This document shows positions 31,017 to 61,315 of a DNA stretch of 64,000 nt, piece after piece. The stretch is taken from contig JADMKE010000047.1 in NCBI GenBank assembly GCA_018780035.1, forward strand, positions 7,823 through 71,822. The letters run 5' to 3'. The notes beneath the pieces were generated by a model. The model was not told the DNA's origin. It saw only the letters and a list, made by a program, of their open reading frames with translations, and ran no database searches. The stretch's first letter is position 1, and each line of letters starts with the position of its first letter. The position numbers were made by a program, and so were the translations under genes. This DNA comes from Candidatus Sericytochromatia bacterium (GTDB lineage: Bacteria; Cyanobacteriota; Sericytochromatia; UBA7694).

Positions 31017-31229
31017 CAGAAGCGGCTCCTCTCGAAGTGTATTGGCTTGTATGCTCAAAACATTATACCTCAAATTTGTCTTGCTCAGTGGCCATGATTC
31101 GCTGCCCCCTTCAGGCCTGCGTGTAGGAAATTTCTCAGACAAAGATGCGGGCTTGGCTGACAGTCTTTGAACAGCTGCTGCGTCAGAATAAAGATCGAAA
31201 GCTAAAAAAAGTCAAAGAGGTTCAAGATC

Positions 31230-32648: not shown

Positions 32649-33836
32649 ATGAAGCTTTTATTGGTAGAAGATGATGCAAGTATGGGGTTGCTCTTTGAGC
32701 GACTCCTGACCCGTTTGGGTTATGAAGTTTGTATCGAAAAAAGCGCTGAAGCAGCCTGGGATCGTTTTCAGTACGAGCCCTTTGATCTGGTCATTACCGA
32801 TTGGGTGCTTGCAGGTATCAGCGGTTTAGAACTTTGCAAACGTTTGCGCTCCCTCCCTTATGGCGAATACATTTATATCTGTGTTGTCACTGCCCGTAAT
32901 TCCAAAGAAGATTTGCTCGAAGTGCTTGAAGCCGGTGCCAACGACTATCTGGCCAAACCCCTTGAAATCCCGCTTTTGGAAGTGCGTATTCGGATTGCAG
33001 AACAACAGGTCTTTCATCTCCAACAGCGCCGCGAAGCCAGGGCTGAGTTGTCTCGCCATCAGCTGGAATTGGAAGGGCGTGTTTTGTCGCGCACAGAAGA
33101 GCTTTCGGAAATGATTCAGGCACTGCAAGATGAGATCAACCAACGGCGCAATGCCGAAACCCGCCTGGCCCAAACCCATCTCCAATTAAGGGCCTTGGCC
33201 AGCCATTTGCTCTCGATTCAAGAAGAGCAACAAAAACGGATATCTCGGGAAATCCATGATGAGCTGGGACAGGCCATGACGGCACTCAAACTGGACTTGG
33301 CCTGGCTGCTACAGCAATTAAACGACCAACCGGTTTTACAGGCAAAAATCCAAAAAATGATCCCTTTGGTCAGCGATACCATTTCCACCATTCAGCGCAT
33401 TTGTGCGGAACTCAGACCCGGCCTGTTGGACGATCTTGGGCTTGAAGCCGCTCTGGAGTGGCTGGTACAAGAATTTGGCGAACGTACGGGTTTGGTCTGT
33501 CTATTGCATTTTGAACCCGAAGAATTAGCACTGCCGATGGACCTTTCCACGACACTGTTTCGCATTTGTCAGGAATCTTTGACCAATATTATGCGCCATG
33601 CCCAAGCCAAACAAGTGAAAATCAGCCTGACCCGCGTCGAGCAAACGGTTTCGCTGCGTGTCCAAGACGATGGCAAAGGCATTTCTGCAGATCAAATCAA
33701 CCACCCCCATTCACTGGGTCTGATGGGGATTCGCGAGCGGGTTTTGCCCTGGAATGGCGATGTCACAATCTCAGGCCAAAGCGGTCAGGGCACCACTATT
33801 TTTGTTCAAGTCAGCCTGGAGGAAGAAACCCCATGA
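32649..33836 (+). CDS. hybrid sensor: N-terminal receiver - coiled coil - HisKA_3 - HATPase_c
   Basis: REC segment LLLVEDD...DLVITDWVLAGISG...K, H-box ISREIHDELGQ, and an ATPase domain with GLMGIRERV and GQGTTIF. Confidence 0.85.
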   Translation: MKLLLVEDDASMGLLFERLLTRLGYEVCIEKSAEAAWDRFQYEPFDLVITDWVLAGISGLELCKRLRSLPYGEYIYICVVTARNSKEDLLEVLEAGANDYLAKPLEIPLLEVRIRIAEQQVFHLQQRREARAELSRHQLELEGRVLSRTEELSEMIQALQDEINQRRNAETRLAQTHLQLRALASHLLSIQEEQQKRISREIHDELGQAMTALKLDLAWLLQQLNDQPVLQAKIQKMIPLVSDTISTIQRICAELRPGLLDDLGLEAALEWLVQEFGERTGLVCLLHFEPEELALPMDLSTTLFRICQESLTNIMRHAQAKQVKISLTRVEQTVSLRVQDDGKGISADQINHPHSLGLMGIRERVLPWNGDVTISGQSGQGTTIFVQVSLEEETP

Positions 33837-34459
33837 TTTCTATTTTAATTGCCGATGATCACGCCATTGTGCGTGAAGGTTTGAAGCAAATTCTGTCGGG
33901 ATTGCCCGATTTTAAGGTCAGTGCAGAGGCCTCCAGCGGTTATGAGACGATCCAGAAATTGGAAGAAATGCCCATCGATTTGGTGATTTTGGATATCAAC
34001 CTCGGTGATCAAAATGGACTCGAAGTGCTCAAGCAGATTCGCCAAAAATGGGCCAGCTTGCCCGTTTTAATTCTGACCATGCATTCTGAAAAACAATATG
34101 CCACCCGCATGCTCAAAGCCGGGGCTTCGGGCTTTTTAAACAAAGGTTCTGCTTCAGAAGAATTGGTCAATGCCCTGCGCAAAATTGCCCGTGGTGGCAA
34201 ATACATCACCGAGAGTCTGGCAGAACAATTGGTGATGGAAATGGGGCAAAGCACAGCGGTGCCGCACGAGCGGCTCTCAGACCGGGAATTTGAAATTTTT
34301 AGGCAAATTGCGATTGGCAAAAAGAACAAAGAAATTGCTGAAGAACTGTATTTAAGCGAAAAAACGGTCAGCACCTATCAAAGCCGGATTCTCGAAAAAA
34401 TGAACCTGGCCAATCGCGCAGCCATCATTCACTATGCTTTGGAGAACAGTTTGATCTAG
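33833..34459 (+). CDS. NarL/FixJ-family response regulator (REC + LuxR-type HTH)
   Basis: MISILIADDHAIVREG..., DLVILDINLGDQNG, and C-terminal LSDREFEIFRQIAIGKKNKEIAEELYLSEKTVSTYQSRILEKM. The ATG overlaps the kinase stop (ATGA at 33833..33836). Confidence 0.9.
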   Translation: MISILIADDHAIVREGLKQILSGLPDFKVSAEASSGYETIQKLEEMPIDLVILDINLGDQNGLEVLKQIRQKWASLPVLILTMHSEKQYATRMLKAGASGFLNKGSASEELVNALRKIARGGKYITESLAEQLVMEMGQSTAVPHERLSDREFEIFRQIAIGKKNKEIAEELYLSEKTVSTYQSRILEKMNLANRAAIIHYALENSLI

Positions 34460-34488
34460 CTCCAACCCTTTGGCATTCAGGCTTGGAG

Positions 34489-34523
34489 AATTTTCTGACA
34501 GCAAGTAGCGGCAAGTCCTGATA
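34489..34523 (+). promoter_or_regulatory. bipartite locus motif, copy 1 (AATTTTCTGACA-N17-CTGATA)
   Basis: CTGACA at 34495..34500 and CTGATA at 34518..34523. It lies 55 nt upstream of ATG 34579. Confidence 0.45.
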
Positions 34524-34578
34524 GGGCCCGGTAGGTGGGAATGATTCAATAGAATTATCACCACTCACCGGAGGAAAC

Positions 34579-35196
34579 ATGAAAAAGATTCTGGCTCTGC
34601 TGCTGGCTTTAAGTGCCTGCCAAACCCTTCCCCTTAGTACCCCAACGGGAAACCCCTCAGTGGCGGACCGGCCACGCGAAACCACCCCGACGACTGAACT
34701 GGCAGCTTCCAGCCCCTCAGTTGAAACCGCTTTGGCCCCCCGTCCAGCACAAGGCCCCACTGTGGCCAAGAATGTGCCTCAATCTTCCCCAGCTGCCCGC
34801 GCAGTGAATCTTCCCACCACTGTCTCTGCTTCTGTTCCCAATACAGCCAATGTTGCACCTGTTGCAGCCCCCAAAACCCGCATCCCGATTGCCAGCTTAA
34901 ACGTGCCCAAGGGCTTTGATTATGCCACGACCCAAGATGTTCAGGTCGATATCCAGGTCAAGAGTCCCAACGGCAACCCCTACCAAAAAGTGATGGTTGC
35001 CATCTATGCCGTAGACAGCCAGGGTTTTAATCCCTTGGTACGCGGTGTGACCGATGCTGAGGGCCGTTATCAAGACCTGATGCGGATCCCTGGTTACCAT
35101 CAGGACTTGCAAATCCAGGTCTCTGCTCTGGGCATTGAAAATTACCAACGGGTCAAGATTGTCAACGATCAACTGATTGCTCAATTCGGAAATTAG
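34579..35196 (+). CDS. lipoprotein with a Pro/Thr/Ala-rich linker and a small beta-rich C-terminal domain
   Basis: Lipobox LLALSAC. The C-terminal segment KVMVAIYAVDSQGFNPLVRGVTDAEGRY is carboxypeptidase-regulatory-like. Confidence 0.6.
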   Translation: MKKILALLLALSACQTLPLSTPTGNPSVADRPRETTPTTELAASSPSVETALAPRPAQGPTVAKNVPQSSPAARAVNLPTTVSASVPNTANVAPVAAPKTRIPIASLNVPKGFDYATTQDVQVDIQVKSPNGNPYQKVMVAIYAVDSQGFNPLVRGVTDAEGRYQDLMRIPGYHQDLQIQVSALGIENYQRVKIVNDQLIAQFGN

Positions 35197-46574: not shown

Positions 46575-46976
46575 TTGGTTGGCGTTTATTCCCCTCTGGA
46601 GTCAGCTGAACCGATTGTTAATTTTTCTCCCGCTGAGTGTCTGAGTTATTCAGAAATTATTCTCAGAGCCAGTGAGCTTACTCCCTTTTTGCGCCAAGAG
46701 GTCAAACACAAACGTTTTGTGATGTTGTATTCCGATCCCTGTGATACGTTGATCATGACTTACGCAGCTCTGCTGGCAGAGCAGATTGCTATCTTGCAGG
46801 CCCCACTGAGTTCCCCTGAAGAGGGCCAATACCTTGAAGCATTGATGCAAAAATCGGGAATTCAAGCAGTGGTGACCTCTCATGAGTTAAAATCGTGTTT
46901 GGACAATTACGCTCCAGGTTTGGCTCAAAAAACAGAGGTTATTAGTTTTTCTCCTCAGCAAGCGCGCAAAAAATAA
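46575..46976 (+). CDS. 133-aa ORF resembling only the N-terminal subdomain of an adenylate-forming (ANL) enzyme; possible remnant
   Basis: LSYSEIILRASELTPFLRQEV..RFVMLYSDPCDTLIMTYAALLAEQIAILQAPL...ALMQKSGIQAVVTS follows the ANL N-terminal pattern, but the AMP-binding core is absent. The start is a TTG with GAGG 8 nt upstream. Confidence 0.35.
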   Translation: MVGVYSPLESAEPIVNFSPAECLSYSEIILRASELTPFLRQEVKHKRFVMLYSDPCDTLIMTYAALLAEQIAILQAPLSSPEEGQYLEALMQKSGIQAVVTSHELKSCLDNYAPGLAQKTEVISFSPQQARKK

Positions 46977-47635
46977 CCTTTTCCATACACTGTTTGAATC
47001 TGACATTGGGTGGGCCATTTTTTTAAGCGATTGCGCAAGCGATTAATATGGGTCTCAACCAAATGGGCATCCCTTTCTGGCAAAAAAGCCCCTCCCCAAA
47101 GATGGCTGTAAAGCTCGGATTTGGAAAGCAAATCAGGTGAATGAGCAAAAAAGATTTTTAAGAGTCTGTGTTCCATTTCTGAAAGGGACAGCGGCACCTG
47201 ATTGCAATAAAACAGATCTTGACTTTGATCTAAGCGCAGCAGGCCAATTTGTAAACAGGTATTATTCAGCAGATAAGCCCGCAATTGGGCTTTTACACGG
47301 GCCAATAATTCTCTGACATCAACGGGTTTGACAATATAGTCGTTGGCACCTGCTTCAAGGGCTTGAATTTTGGTCTCTACACTGCGTTCTGCCGAAAAAA
47401 TGATCACAGGGGTATTCCATTGATTGCGTATTTTTTGGCAGAGTTGAATCCCATTGCCATCGGGCAATTCCAAATCCAAGAGAATCAAATCAATTTTTTG
47501 GCAGGACAATTGTTTGAATCCCTCTGCACCCGTGACAGTTAAATGGGTTTGATACCCTTGGGTTTCGAGACTCATGCGCGTAAATGTTGCCAAACGCAAA
47601 TCGTCTTCAATAATTAAAATCGTCTGATCGCTCAT
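46955..47635 (-). CDS. OmpR/PhoB-family response regulator
   Basis: REC segment ILIIEDD...DLILLDLELPDGNG...K. The C-terminal winged helix reads LSEMEHRLLKIF...VETHINRLRNRL...IQTVYGKGY. Confidence 0.9.
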   Translation of the reverse strand: MSDQTILIIEDDLRLATFTRMSLETQGYQTHLTVTGAEGFKQLSCQKIDLILLDLELPDGNGIQLCQKIRNQWNTPVIIFSAERSVETKIQALEAGANDYIVKPVDVRELLARVKAQLRAYLLNNTCLQIGLLRLDQSQDLFYCNQVPLSLSEMEHRLLKIFFAHSPDLLSKSELYSHLWGGAFLPERDAHLVETHINRLRNRLKKWPTQCQIQTVYGKGYFLRAC

Positions 47636-47636
47636 T

Positions 47637-48719
47637 TTAGGCTTTGAGCGGGGTTTGGGTCAGTGACAAAAGTTCTGAGTGATTCTGTATGGGTTTTGGC
47701 CACATGCGGGTAATCTCTGCCAAGGAGGCGGATGAATCTTTTTGAAAACCCTGCAAGAGGCTTTGCAAACAAGCAGATTGCAATTTGGGCTCAGCTGAAA
47801 TCTGGTAGAGACCTTGGTAAATTTGGGCCTGTTTAAACCACAATTCTGCTGCCTGCGGAGCATAAATCAATGCCATTTGAACCAAGTGTAAAGCCCGTTT
47901 CAGTCCTTCTACCTGCTTGAATTCAATCAAGGCATCCAGCCAGACCCTGTAGCCCCATTTTAAGAGTTCTTCAGAATGGTTGCCAAAGGCGCTGAGCCAT
48001 TCTTCACTTTTTAGGGCGAGGTTTTGCCACTGGCTGGGATTTTTGAGCAATCGGGCCAAGCAGAATTCACAGACAAGTTCGAAATAGGATTTAAAAAAAG
48101 TGGGTTCCCAGTCTGAAAATTGGTTTTTTAAATTGAGGAGTGCATCTGCAGAGGTCTCAGAGAAAAAATGTTTTAGACTATAAAGCAGTCCAGATGCCAA
48201 TTTGAGAGTCTGTTCAGGCAGATCTTCGGGGCAAAAGCGATGGGCCTCTTGAGCGGTTTGCAATGCGCGCTCAGCCAGAACCCATTGTTGGCGAGCGGCC
48301 TCTAAAAAAGCAATTAAAATTTGTAGTTGAATCGGTTGGCTAAATTGAGGCAATGCTTCGGTCAGAAGGTGTTGGGCTACACTGTCTTGGCCGTTTAAAA
48401 GACAAACATGGCTATTGAGTAAAAGTTTTTCAAAGGCCTCATTGCCTGTTAAAGCCGAAATCTGGGCATCCAAAGGCACAGTTTGCTCTCTGGCATAGCC
48501 CACTGTTTGCAGCAATTGCAATTGAACAATGGCATCTTGAGATAAAATCTGTGAGATTTTTTTGAGGATTTTTTCTGAAGGAATGCGTTTGTCAGATTCG
48601 ATCAATGAGACATAGGCTTCAGATATATCCGCTTTTTCAGCCAATTGACGCATGGACAGGCCCGAATGAAAGCGCAGTTCCCGAAGTCGTTGTGCCAGGG
48701 GTGAGAGTTCAACATTCAT
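47637..48719 (-). CDS. XRE-family HTH protein with a C-terminal TPR-like helical domain
   Basis: LRELRFHSGLSMRQLAEKADISEAYVSLIESDKRIPS is an HTH_3-type segment, followed by about 280 aa of helical repeats. Its stop is 1 nt from the response-regulator start. Confidence 0.8.
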   Translation of the reverse strand: MNVELSPLAQRLRELRFHSGLSMRQLAEKADISEAYVSLIESDKRIPSEKILKKISQILSQDAIVQLQLLQTVGYAREQTVPLDAQISALTGNEAFEKLLLNSHVCLLNGQDSVAQHLLTEALPQFSQPIQLQILIAFLEAARQQWVLAERALQTAQEAHRFCPEDLPEQTLKLASGLLYSLKHFFSETSADALLNLKNQFSDWEPTFFKSYFELVCEFCLARLLKNPSQWQNLALKSEEWLSAFGNHSEELLKWGYRVWLDALIEFKQVEGLKRALHLVQMALIYAPQAAELWFKQAQIYQGLYQISAEPKLQSACLQSLLQGFQKDSSASLAEITRMWPKPIQNHSELLSLTQTPLKA

Positions 48720-51481: not shown

Positions 51482-51538
51482 ACTGTGTTTACCTCCGAGA
51501 CTTCTATTACCAGCTTAAGTCTCAGGCCCGTGTGAAAG

Positions 51539-51573
51539 AATCAGACTTTAAGCCCTTTCAGTGTCGGACTTTT
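51539..51573 (-). promoter_or_regulatory. bipartite locus motif, copy 5 (minus strand AAAAGTCCGACA-N17-CTGATT)
   Basis: The plus strand has tgtcgg at 51562..51567 and aatcag at 51539..51544. It lies 57 nt upstream of ATG 51481. Confidence 0.4.
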
Positions 51574-52937
51574 CTGACGGCCAAACGTGAGCCTAGCCTG
51601 GGCCCTGGAGTTTGTTTCTGAGACTGTCTTTCTAATCTTTCCAAGACCAGGATCAGGGCGAAGACCAGCATCAATTGGTAAAAATTATTCGATTGTTTGA
51701 GCACCCATTCAAAACAGGTTTCGAGATAAATCGAGACCTGCCCAGCGGCCAAACCCAACGCCAGTGCCTTGTATACGGGGTTCTGGGCTTTAAAAAAGAG
51801 CCGAAAAGCCCGAAACGCAAATCCCCAGAGCAGAATCACATAGAGGGCCAAACTGTGCCAACCGGCCTCAGCTGCCACCATCAGGTAAGCCGTTTCCACC
51901 AATCCGCCTTTTTCCTCTTCCTCTTCGGGATCATTGCTCTCTTTGCGGGGAATGTGGTCCCCATAGGGGTAAGGGGGGTTGATCTTGAGGCCAAAATTGT
52001 TTAAACCAATGCCGAGGGGTTTGTCGGCCACCATGCGCAGGGCGGCAATGGCCAAAACCTGACGCACCTCCATCGACTCTTCGGGAGCTGTTTCAAAGCG
52101 CTCGTGAATGGAGTCGCTGGCTTTCCAAGCAATGGCTCCCCCCATGGTCAAGGCCAAGAGCAGCACAGCCGTTTTACGCAGGCTGATCTGGCTTGGGGTA
52201 TACGAAAATACAAAAACCAAAGCCAGTCCCAAGGCCAAAAACAACATCCCGCCACGGGAGAAGGTAAACACAGTGCACAACATGCCCACGGCCAAAAGTC
52301 CCAGCCAAAACAGACTGATAGCTGCAGAGCTGCGCTTTTGATTGAGTACATATGAAAAGAGCAGGCAGTTGAACAAATTGACATACATGACCAATGAGTT
52401 TTGGTGCGGAAAGGGCCCTTTGGCCTGCCACATACCCATGCGGTATTTTTGGTTGAGCATTTCATAAAAGATATACAACATGACCAATGCCACGGCCCTT
52501 AAAAACCACTGCAATTGTCTGGGGTTTTGAATCCAATGGCTCACAACCCAAAAAAGCAGGTACATTCTCACCATCTTAAACAGCTCAAAGGCCACAAACA
52601 GTGGCTCTCCGGCATTGACCACCGAGAGGGCTGAAAAGGCAAAATAGAGCCAAAAGACCGTCGAACCTGGCGGCCAAGGGGTGAGTTTGAACTGTTGCCG
52701 TCTGAGCCACAGGGCCCCCAACATACCCAGCGCCAAGATATCGATCAAAGAGACCTCAAAGCCTTTGGCAGTGCCCCTGTAAAACTCCATTGAAACAAAG
52801 TTAATATCCACGGTTTTTACAGTTAAAAAGACCAAGAGTGGAATCACGGCATTGCGCAATCGTGCTGAACGCGACAAAACCAGTGCCAGCAAAGGGGTTC
52901 CCACCACCAAAAAGGCAAAAAACGCCAGGTATTTCAT
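51558..52937 (-). CDS. O-antigen polymerase/ligase family membrane protein (Wzy-like)
   Basis: More than 10 TM segments. FTFSRGGMLFLALGLAL is a Wzy_C-type segment, and there is a large periplasmic-type loop. The start is taken at ATG 52937, which forms an ATGA overlap with the acetyltransferase stop. Confidence 0.7.
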   Translation of the reverse strand: MKYLAFFAFLVVGTPLLALVLSRSARLRNAVIPLLVFLTVKTVDINFVSMEFYRGTAKGFEVSLIDILALGMLGALWLRRQQFKLTPWPPGSTVFWLYFAFSALSVVNAGEPLFVAFELFKMVRMYLLFWVVSHWIQNPRQLQWFLRAVALVMLYIFYEMLNQKYRMGMWQAKGPFPHQNSLVMYVNLFNCLLFSYVLNQKRSSAAISLFWLGLLAVGMLCTVFTFSRGGMLFLALGLALVFVFSYTPSQISLRKTAVLLLALTMGGAIAWKASDSIHERFETAPEESMEVRQVLAIAALRMVADKPLGIGLNNFGLKINPPYPYGDHIPRKESNDPEEEEEKGGLVETAYLMVAAEAGWHSLALYVILLWGFAFRAFRLFFKAQNPVYKALALGLAAGQVSIYLETCFEWVLKQSNNFYQLMLVFALILVLERLERQSQKQTPGPRLGSRLAVRKVRH

Positions 52938-53542: not shown

Positions 53543-53616
53543 CTTCGGCCTCCTAAAAAAAGTGCTGGCCGGTTTACCCGGCTGTGTTAAGCATAAAGGT
53601 TGCCTCCAAGCAAAAC

Positions 53617-53651
53617 ATTCAGCTTTTTGTGACAGGGCCTGTCAGAATTTT
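53617..53651 (-). promoter_or_regulatory. bipartite locus motif, copy 6 (minus strand AAAATTCTGACA-N17-CTGAAT)
   Basis: The plus strand has tgtcag at 53640..53645 and attcag at 53617..53622. It lies 74 nt upstream of ATG 53542. Confidence 0.4.
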
Positions 53652-53700
53652 CCCAAACTTGAATCAGGGCAAGAGGGGGCCGGACTTCTGGTGAGGAGGG

Positions 53701-57846: not shown

Positions 57847-57894
57847 GTTTCTTTCCTCCTGACTCCAGCCTAACCGCTAGCGCCAGGGCAAAAG

Positions 57895-57928
57895 AATCAG
57901 CGGATGCTGGCTTTTGCGTCAGAATTTT
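57895..57928 (-). promoter_or_regulatory. bipartite locus motif, copy 3 (minus strand AAAATTCTGACG-N16-CTGATT)
   Basis: The plus strand has cgtcag at 57917..57922 and aatcag at 57895..57900. It lies 48 nt upstream of ATG 57846. Its -35-like half is part of the perfect palindrome at 57918..57933. Confidence 0.45.
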
Positions 57929-57945
57929 CTGACCCCCCAAGCGGG

Positions 57946-57978
57946 TATTCTGACAATTTTCAGGGTCAGGCTCTGACT
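57946..57978 (+). promoter_or_regulatory. bipartite locus motif, copy 2 (TATTCTGACA-N17-CTGACT)
   Basis: CTGACA at 57950..57955 and CTGACT at 57973..57978. It lies 57 nt upstream of ATG 58036. Confidence 0.45.
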
Positions 57979-58035
57979 GCTTTCAGGCCTGCTCTGCCAG
58001 GATAATCAAGGTATCCAAAACACTGAGGTGAAAAT

Positions 58036-61153: not shown

Positions 61154-61221
61154 TGTGTGGGTTTGTTGATGGGGGTTGTTTATGATTTTCGGGATGGGTG
61201 TGTTCATTCCAGACTGTAGGG

Positions 61222-61255
61222 ATTTTCTGACAAGCGAAGACACAAGCCTCTGATA
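61222..61255 (+). promoter_or_regulatory. bipartite locus motif, copy 4 (ATTTTCTGACA-N17-CTGATA)
   Basis: CTGACA at 61227..61232 and CTGATA at 61250..61255. It lies 60 nt upstream of ATG 61316. It matches copy 1 at ATTTTCTGACA and at CTGATAGG. Confidence 0.45.
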
Positions 61256-61315
61256 GGACACAGCTCGGGGAGAATCTAGACTAAAGGTATCACACCATTT
61301 TTGGAGGAATTGTTT

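Follow-up and report, generated by a model that had tools for sequence, protein, structure and literature searches.

We analysed a 64,000-nucleotide stretch of DNA (referred to as the window) from a Candidatus Sericytochromatia bacterium, and in particular the palindrome GTCAGAATTTTCTGAC at 57918-57933. This palindrome lies in the 189-bp spacer between the divergent start codons of a GT4 gene (ATG 57846, minus strand) and an alkaline-phosphatase (AP)-family gene (ATG 58036, plus strand) of an exopolysaccharide locus. Judged by its recurrence and its conservation, the palindrome is a real, conserved regulatory site. We consider it likely that, within a promoter module specific to this locus, it serves as the upstream activating site and is bound by the NarL/FixJ-type response regulator encoded in the same locus. 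The source genome (G000) is a metagenome-assembled genome of 6.47 Mb with 50.6% G+C, and the related genomes compared with it are labelled G001-G005 and G009-G012.

The sequence-only reading of the window had described GTCAGAATTTTCTGAC as a perfect 7-2-7 palindrome in a region with five copies of the pentamer CTGAC/GTCAG. The sequence and the coordinates proved to be exact (Table 1), and four further pentamers accompany the palindrome. Perfect 7-2-7 inverted repeats are common; there are 6 in the window and 1088 in the whole genome, corresponding to about 10.8 per 64 kb. The significance of the palindrome is therefore due to its recurrence and conservation and not to the 7-2-7 symmetry itself. 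The exact 16-mer pattern occurs once in the genome, and this is the single place in the whole 6.47 Mb where five CTGAC/GTCAG pentamers lie inside 60 bp.

Near-copies of the palindrome in the window stand in front of other operons. An ungapped alignment anchored on the 16-mer was made of 30 sites from 8 genomes, which belong to 2-3 genera of one Sericytochromatia family. The aligned sites begin with an 18-bp dyad with the consensus TGTCAGAA-WW-TTCTGACA (T-G-T-C-A-G-A-A-W-W-T-T-C-T-G-A-C-A), whose final A is followed by 17 unconserved bases (18 when counted from the 16-mer, written N18) and then by the box CTGATAG at positions 35-41. After another 19-20 unconserved bases comes the hexamer TAnnnT at positions 62-67, its three fixed bases being found in 26, 23 and 27 of the 30 sites, respectively. 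The hexamer is followed by 'aAA' and then, seven bases past it, by an A at position 74 in 24 of the 30 sites. A one-base shift of the CTGAT box (N17 in place of N18) leaves the 45 bp between the dyad and the -10 hexamer unchanged.

The two halves of the dyad are conserved alike at their mirror positions: T2 and A15 were found in 28 and 30 of the 30 sites, C3 and G14 in 26 and 25, A4 and T13 in 27 each, G5 and C12 in all, and A6 and T11 in 28 and 27, and the central two bases are A or T in every site. In the set of 23 one-directional promoters, agreement with the consensus amounts to 6.6 of 8 positions for the promoter-distal half and to 7.3 of 8 for the proximal half, where 2 would be expected by chance. 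Seven of these 23 promoters, such as the one with GTCAGAA-AA-GTCCGAC at 51563-51578, combine a degenerate proximal half with a better or perfect distal half. This is also the place where the arrangement had been said to recur, and GTCGGACTTTTCTGAC was indeed found there. Since both halves are conserved even when there is one promoter, the dyad is probably the binding site of a dimeric protein and not a -35 box. Two inverted heptamers with a 2-bp gap, both halves apparently under selection, are what is expected of a 7-2-7 operator of the NarL/FixJ type, the geometry named in the sequence-only reading.

The distal-half conservation bears directly on another explanation, according to which a dedicated alternative sigma factor recognises the motif as its promoter, with TTCTGACA as the -35 and CTGATAGG as the -10 element, and the palindrome results from back-to-back -35 boxes. 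Transcription would then start 6-8 nt past CTGATTCT / CTGATAGG or CTGACAAT, and the sigma factor might be under the control of the STAS and RsbW-like partner-switch proteins of the locus. Two highly conserved boxes at a fixed spacing of 17-18 bp resemble a promoter of the extracytoplasmic function (ECF) or group-3 type. The AP-family side carries a lone TTCTGACA without a dyad partner and with CTGACTG at N17, the locus encodes a REC-PP2C-RsbW-like protein and STAS proteins, and an inverted repeat in the leader of the operon starting at 34579 (see below) would fit a start just past CTGATAGG. Nevertheless, we regard this explanation as improbable, because it does not account for a distal half matching at 6.6 of 8 positions in one-directional promoters or for the 7 promoters in which that half is the better one and the supposed -35 is degenerate, and because it leaves the TAnnnT at a fixed offset and the conserved A unexplained. 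Moreover, the locus has no sigma factor gene; all ten sigma70-family genes lie elsewhere in the genome with the motif upstream of none of them, and the ECF sigma genes with a recognisable promoter carry their own GGAAC/CGTC-type motifs. G010 keeps the motif, and the REC-PP2C-RsbW gene was not found in the fetched region of its locus. A pairing of TTCTGAC as -35 with CTGATAGG as -10 was also considered and was dropped when the 30-site alignment showed the symmetric dyad and a TAnnnT 19 nt downstream.

In the alignment, TAnnnT and the purine seven bases further on have the signature of a sigma70-type -10 element and transcription start. With the -10 placed at -12 to -7, the centre of the dyad comes to about -65.5 and the CTGATAG box to -39 to -33. 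This does not agree with the sequence-only reading, which had taken the palindrome to supply a -35-like half and the CTGAT box to be -10-like; with the -10 fixed 45 bp beyond the 16-mer, the dyad lies too far upstream for the former, and the box falls in the region where a -35 would be. A consensus scan detected no canonical -35/-10 promoter in the spacer, and no TTGACA-like hexamer was found at usable spacing (16-18 bp upstream of the -10). Outside the regulon, CTGATAG is not enriched ahead of -10 boxes of the form TAnnnT, and it is not a general -35-like element in this genome. A fixed TAnnnT with a purine about 7 nt on and no -35 are the features of an activator-dependent sigma70-type promoter. 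Two further arrangements were rejected. A second dyad around the CTGATAG box, whose left half was sought in the 30-site alignment, showed inconsistent conservation, and a class II activator site at -41.5 in the style of CRP, NtcA or LuxR is excluded by the dyad and the downstream TAnnnT, the half-site spacing of CRP/NtcA sites also being different.

The module can be followed to both sides of the spacer (Table 1), and our results support the claim that the spacer is a control region shared by the two divergent operons. Relative to the GT4 promoter, the palindrome is centred at about -65.5; relative to the AP-family promoter, at about -87.5. On the GT4 side, the predicted -10 hexamer is identical in G003, G004 and G005, and the promoter-proximal box, through its resemblance to TTCTGACA, is possibly a half-site of low affinity for the putative dyad-binding regulator. 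On the AP-family side, the standard module position is occupied by an extra half-site and not by the dyad, and the CTGACA of the second, imperfect palindrome marked in the sequence-only reading is part of this half-site. In the box on this side, CTGACTG is kept in G001 and G004, and G012 has CTGATGG at equal offset; the G004 counterpart of the predicted -10 is CATAAT, followed by the same CAAGGTATC. The shifted arrangement with the extra half-site is common to G001, G003, G004, G005, G011 and G012. G010 has no extra half-site, and its one dyad stands in the standard position (-65.5) for both directions. It was further observed that the position of the AP-family promoter differs by 21 bp between genera, the added half-site lying two helical turns downstream, and that G010 (loci L045-L047, G010:C19, ~71.3 kb) uses the dyad directly, with N18, CTGATGGT, N19 and TATAGT.

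Table 1. Positions of the palindrome, the predicted promoter elements, the other module copies and the candidate regulatory genes in the window
Feature	Positions	Strand	Sequence or parts	Remark
Dyad (palindrome)	57918..57933	none	GTCAGAA-TT-TTCTGAC	Copy of the family-wide 18-bp consensus
Second imperfect palindrome	57950-57963		CTGACAATTTTCAG	Contains CTGAC at 57950; coordinates exact
Pentamer	57965-57969		GTCAG	Coordinates exact
Pentamer	57973-57977		CTGAC	Coordinates exact
Module on the GT4 side	dyad 57933 to 57918	minus	dyad, N17, CTGATTCT, N20, TAGGCT
Promoter-proximal box, GT4 operon	57893..57900	minus	CTGATTCT	About -40 to -33; N17 from the dyad (N18 in most copies)
Predicted -10, GT4 operon	57867..57872	minus	TAGGCT	At the TAnnnT offset of the 30 sites
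Predicted start, GT4 operon	57860	minus	A	Directly before Shine-Dalgarno GGAGG; ATG 57846
Extra half-site	57948..57955	plus	TTCTGACA	21 bp beyond the right half of the dyad; without dyad partner
Promoter-proximal box, AP-family/GT4-WecG operon	57973..57980	plus	CTGACTGC	N17 after the final A of the half-site (N18 after TTCTGAC)
Predicted -10, AP-family operon	58001..58006	plus	GATAAT	N20 after CTGACTGC; predicted start A 58013; ATG 58036
Module copy, operon starting 34579	34484..34550	plus	TGGAGAATTTTCTGAC, N18, CTGATAGG, N19, TTCAAT
Module copy, GT4 gene starting 51481	51512..51578	minus	GTCAGAAAAGTCCGAC, N18, CTGATTCT, N19, TAAGCT	Perfect half is the promoter-distal one
Module copy, hexapeptide acetyltransferase/Wzy operon	53590..53656	minus	TTGGGAAAATTCTGAC, N18, CTGAATGT, N19, TATGCT
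Module copy, STAS gene	61216..61282	plus	GTAGGGATTTTCTGAC, N18, CTGATAGG, N19, TAGACT
Module copy, manC-kinase-regulator operon (ATG 31230)	31123..31189	plus	GTAGGAAATTTCTCAG, N18, CTGACAGT, N19, CAGAAT	Weak but complete
NarL/FixJ-type response regulator	33833..34459	plus	REC + GerE helix-turn-helix (Pfam)	Candidate dyad binder
Cognate kinase	32649..33836	plus	REC-HisKA_3-HATPase_c	Conserved beside the regulator gene

The 16-mer is kept with 0-1 mismatch in the orthologous spacers of G005, G003, G004, G001, G010, G011 and G012, in which the flanking DNA has diverged, and in the most distant of the genomes with the conserved 16-mer the adjacent GT4 protein is down to 34-42% identity. Among the neighbouring elements, the CTGAC at 57973 and the CTGACA part of the second palindrome are conserved. 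The ATTTTCAG arm of that palindrome varies among close relatives, and the GTCAG at 57965-57969 is variable, reading GGCAG in G003, GGTCGG in G001 and GGTGGG in G004. The arm and this pentamer are probably incidental because they are not conserved, and the second palindrome does not hold up as a dyad, since across the relatives only its TTCTGACA half-site is conserved. These data also argue against a purely structural or trivial origin of the palindrome, that is, an RNA-level hairpin or terminator or a functionless inverted repeat formed by chance. Such an origin would agree with the frequency of perfect 7-2-7 repeats (~11 per 64 kb) and with the weak terminator-like stems listed nearby by the consensus scan, but it is very hard to reconcile with a sequence and dyad symmetry that are conserved across genera between diverged flanks and recur at 7-8 promoters. 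In addition, the region has a fold z of -1.38, with 17 of 200 shuffles folding at least equally well, it has no Rfam match, and the site lies upstream of both predicted starts.

To define the regulon, a position weight matrix (PWM) trained solely on the sites of other genomes was scanned over the whole source genome; a bipartite regular-expression scan with one mismatch allowed had been too noisy (201 matches against 42-159 for scrambled controls). Five sites of the window scored 35-36, the manC site at 31123 scored 22.4, and the site of a STAS-PLD operon on contig C3 scored 40, whereas the best unrelated genomic site reached 16.0. The score of the GT4 promoter with the 57918 dyad was 17.5, which is low because its box is shifted by 1 nt. 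Altogether, the site recurs at 7-8 promoters, and all strong sites precede protein-coding operons with a Shine-Dalgarno sequence and an ATG. Predicted copies of the module precede every transcription unit of the exopolysaccharide locus and at least one STAS-gene operon elsewhere. The copy before the manC-kinase-regulator operon, whose orthologous site is strong in G009, implies autoregulation (positive feedback).

Some individual copies are worth describing. The C3 site (~26083 to 25990, minus strand; L026), the top module copy of the genome, is composed of CGTCAGATTTTTCTGACA, CTGATAGT and TAATCT and precedes a second STAS gene (110 aa) followed by a gene for an 870-aa PLD-like protein; an orthologous site is present in G002. 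On contig C63 (3806-3900, plus strand), the dyad TGTCAGACTTTTCTGATC with TAGAAT at the standard offset and without a CTGATAG box precedes a third STAS-like open reading frame (ORF), which is apparently interrupted by a frameshift or stop after ~60 codons. For the STAS gene of the window, the start is most likely ATG 61316 and not the upstream TTG 61301 of the longest ORF, because of the predicted transcript start at 61289 and the GGAGG at 61303-61307. A 44-nt inverted repeat, CCGGTAGGTGGGAATGATTC-AATA-GAATTATCACCACTCACCGG, is located at 34528-34571 (plus strand) in the leader of the 34579 operon. It spans the presumed -10, and its end lies in the Shine-Dalgarno sequence of the 34579 gene; as RNA the 70-nt leader has a folding energy of about -29 kcal/mol. 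The repeat shows compensatory changes between G000 and G004 (CCGGTGTGGGG / CCCCACACCGG) and may mask the Shine-Dalgarno sequence in read-through RNA from the regulator gene.

For the class, 47 genomes were surveyed for the motif, together with about 350 genomes from the rest of the Cyanobacteriota. Multi-copy matches were confined to two genera of the family, with variant copies in a third genus (G009); elsewhere in the survey there were 6 single matches, compared with 2 for the reversed control pattern. At least 120 contigs contained the exact 18-mer in a metagenome scan. The downstream module was lacking in nearly all of them, and these matches are due to chance or to other systems. In one metagenome locus (L091), the 18-mer is part of a longer dispersed repeat. 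The exact 18-mer TGTCAGAATATTCTGACA or near-copies of it also occur without the module on the unrelated AT-rich contigs L071, L102, L144 and L172, and in L102 two copies lie inside predicted ORFs; on such contigs the recurrent 18-mer possibly serves as operator for a different family of regulators or belongs to a dispersed repeat.

The genes flanking the spacer are part of a ~30-kb exopolysaccharide locus with GT4, GT2, WecG, Wzy, flippase, deacetylase and Bac_transf genes, which also encodes a REC-HisKA_3 kinase, a NarL-type regulator, a REC-PP2C-RsbW-like protein and a STAS protein. The regulator gene ends 25 bp ahead of the module copy at 34484, and an interval of 25-50 bp between the two is found in the source genus and in G010. 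Its receiver domain is apparently intact, the recognition helix LSEKT(V/I)STYQ(S/T)RILEKM is invariant across genera, and its best NCBIfam match is UvrY/SirA/GacA (NF007018), with 158.7 bits against a cut-off of 280 bits. Orthologues with at least 69% identity were found only in genera with the locus and the motif, the next ones elsewhere in the class having ~40%. The kinase-regulator pair is located within the locus in G001, G004, G009, G010 and G011 (in G012 the kinase is cut by the contig end). No other DNA-binding regulator system accompanies the locus in every genome that bears the motif; three further proteins of the window, namely the OmpR-type regulator, the XRE-TPR protein and the AAA-GAF kinase, have no counterpart in the loci of the relatives. 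Hence the REC-GerE regulator expected for a NarL/FixJ operator is encoded in the locus and co-occurs with the motif. The regulator at 33833-34459, which the sequence-only reading had named as the binder, is thus the best candidate, being the sole conserved locus regulator, with a kinase, an invariant recognition helix and a likeness to UvrY/GacA; binding itself is what we infer.

As the tie between this regulator and the site is drawn from sequence, we weighed whether the palindrome is a true operator for another protein, such as the OmpR-type regulator (46955-47635), the XRE-TPR protein (47637-48719) or one encoded elsewhere, or whether the locus regulator acts as a repressor. Dimers of the XRE type also bind palindromes, and the occurrence of the exact 18-mer, sometimes 2-3 times per contig, on unrelated AT-rich contigs suggests that similar dyads are perhaps recognised by other proteins. 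We nevertheless think these alternatives unlikely. Direct repeats are the typical sites of OmpR-type regulators, the loci of G001, G004 and G010 keep the motif and have neither the OmpR-type nor the XRE-TPR gene, and among DNA-binding genes only that of the NarL-type regulator co-occurs with the motif. As for repression, activation agrees better than occlusion with the missing -35 and with a dyad located 45 bp upstream of the -10.

We propose the following mechanism for the NarL/FixJ-type regulator. The adjacent REC-histidine kinase would phosphorylate the regulator, which would bind the dyad as a head-to-head dimer centred at about -65.5 and probably also occupy the half-site-like CTGATAG box at -39 to -33, where a -35 box would be. 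In this position it would bring RNA polymerase with a sigma factor of the housekeeping type to promoters in which a -10 is present and a -35 is lacking. The single palindrome would serve the GT4 operon (minus strand, start ~57860) from -65.5, and the AP-family/GT4-WecG operon (plus strand, start ~58013) from about -87.5 via the extra half-site.

Several points weigh against this proposal. The presumed -10 box has T instead of A as its second base in 7 of the 30 sites, and all start-relative positions derive from the -10 consensus. The CTGATAG box is offset from the proximal half-site by 25 bp, a non-integral number of helical turns. The regulator is a generic NarL-family member, far below the UvrY/GacA cut-off, and its co-occurrence with the locus and the motif could reflect inheritance as one block. 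Finally, if the inverted repeat at 34528-34571 acts as RNA from the 34579 promoter, the start there must be further upstream than predicted.

A bolder and rather doubtful extension is that the response regulator stands in for sigma region 4 and the module as a whole forms a portable, complete promoter code. If true, a dimer would sit on a GacA-box-like dyad at -65.5 with a further subunit on the CTGATAG half-site, and one symmetric site would fire two divergent promoters, as the G010 layout suggests. The same code would then connect the two-component system directly with its own operon, with the synthesis of polysaccharide and with as many as three STAS phospho-switch genes, coupling transcriptional and partner-switch control of a glycan in a lineage so far without genetics.

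Sericytochromatia are uncultured non-photosynthetic relatives of cyanobacteria, and the analysis provides a testable regulatory map for a ~30-kb polysaccharide locus of this group, with eight promoters, their predicted starts, a candidate regulator and kinase, and a genome-wide regulon boundary. The STAS genes in the regulon link two-component signalling to partner-switch modules. Although the organism is uncultivable, the module is compact (~75 bp) and can therefore be tested in a heterologous reporter host.

The element can be compared with several known systems. In Escherichia coli, NarL/NarP sites consist of inverted heptamers with a 2-bp gap that are bound by a REC-GerE dimer; they are found at differing distances upstream, such as about -69.5 or -74.5 at nirB and nrfA. 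The 7-2-7 geometry is the same, but the heptamer (TACYYMT) is unrelated, and a global respiratory regulon contrasts with the single-locus regulon and rigid three-part module found here. At the fha promoter of Bordetella, BvgA uses a high-affinity inverted heptad far upstream and lower-affinity sites in steps of about two turns down to the -35 region. The AP-family side is arranged alike, with the dyad at about -87.5, the half-site at about -66 and the box at about -36; the half-site sequence differs, and any cooperative oligomerisation at the present site would be hypothetical. The palindrome also literally fits GTCAN8TGAC, which we take to be the site of NrrA, a NarL-type regulator of the same phylum; NrrA controls glycogen catabolism and not polysaccharide export.

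With respect to function, a close parallel is the RcsAB box TaAGaatatTCcta, an A/T-centred pseudo-palindrome through which a NarL/FixJ-family regulator controls capsule and exopolysaccharide operons of enterobacteria (PMC4325325, PMC5829831). By our own count, 11 of 14 positions agree with TCAGAAWWTTCTGA. However, the enterobacterial box is asymmetric and is bound by RcsB and RcsA as a heterodimer, an RcsA-like partner is not evident in the present case, and the family scan of the regulator placed RcsB far behind UvrY and NarL.

In geometry, the dyad is identical to the GacA box, TGTAAGN6CTTACA, a palindromic upstream activating sequence (PMC8523701, PMC11611043) that serves a NarL-family regulator (GacA/UvrY/SirA) at the Csr/Rsm small-RNA genes of Gammaproteobacteria (PMC8523701, PMC11611043, PMC7911923). 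Both are 18-bp 6-6-6 dyads, and each half of TGTCAG-N6-CTGACA deviates from the GacA box at a single base, the fourth half-site base being consistently different (C in 26 and G in 25 of the 30 sites). The regulator is likewise best matched to the UvrY/SirA/GacA family, yet at 158.7 bits against 280. The targets are protein-coding polysaccharide and STAS operons instead of sponge RNAs, there is an extra CTGATAG box, and the host belongs to the Cyanobacteriota (Sericytochromatia). Membership of the GacA/UvrY regulon was rejected, as the consensus, the score of the regulator against the equivalog cut-off and the lack of CsrB/Rsm small-RNA targets all disagree with it. Individual sites come close to the GacA sequence: one G011 site reads TGTAAGAA, and in L053 (G011:C224), just past the regulator gene and before the 34579-like gene, TGTAAGAAAAAACCCACA has the canonical GacA half TGTAAG as its left half. 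It is possible that a recognition helix and box of the GacA type were taken over outside Proteobacteria to control structural genes directly. An upstream activating site for a NarL/GacA-type regulator is a familiar type of control element; here it belongs to a new organism of an unstudied lineage, the Sericytochromatia, and to an unusually rigid three-part module.

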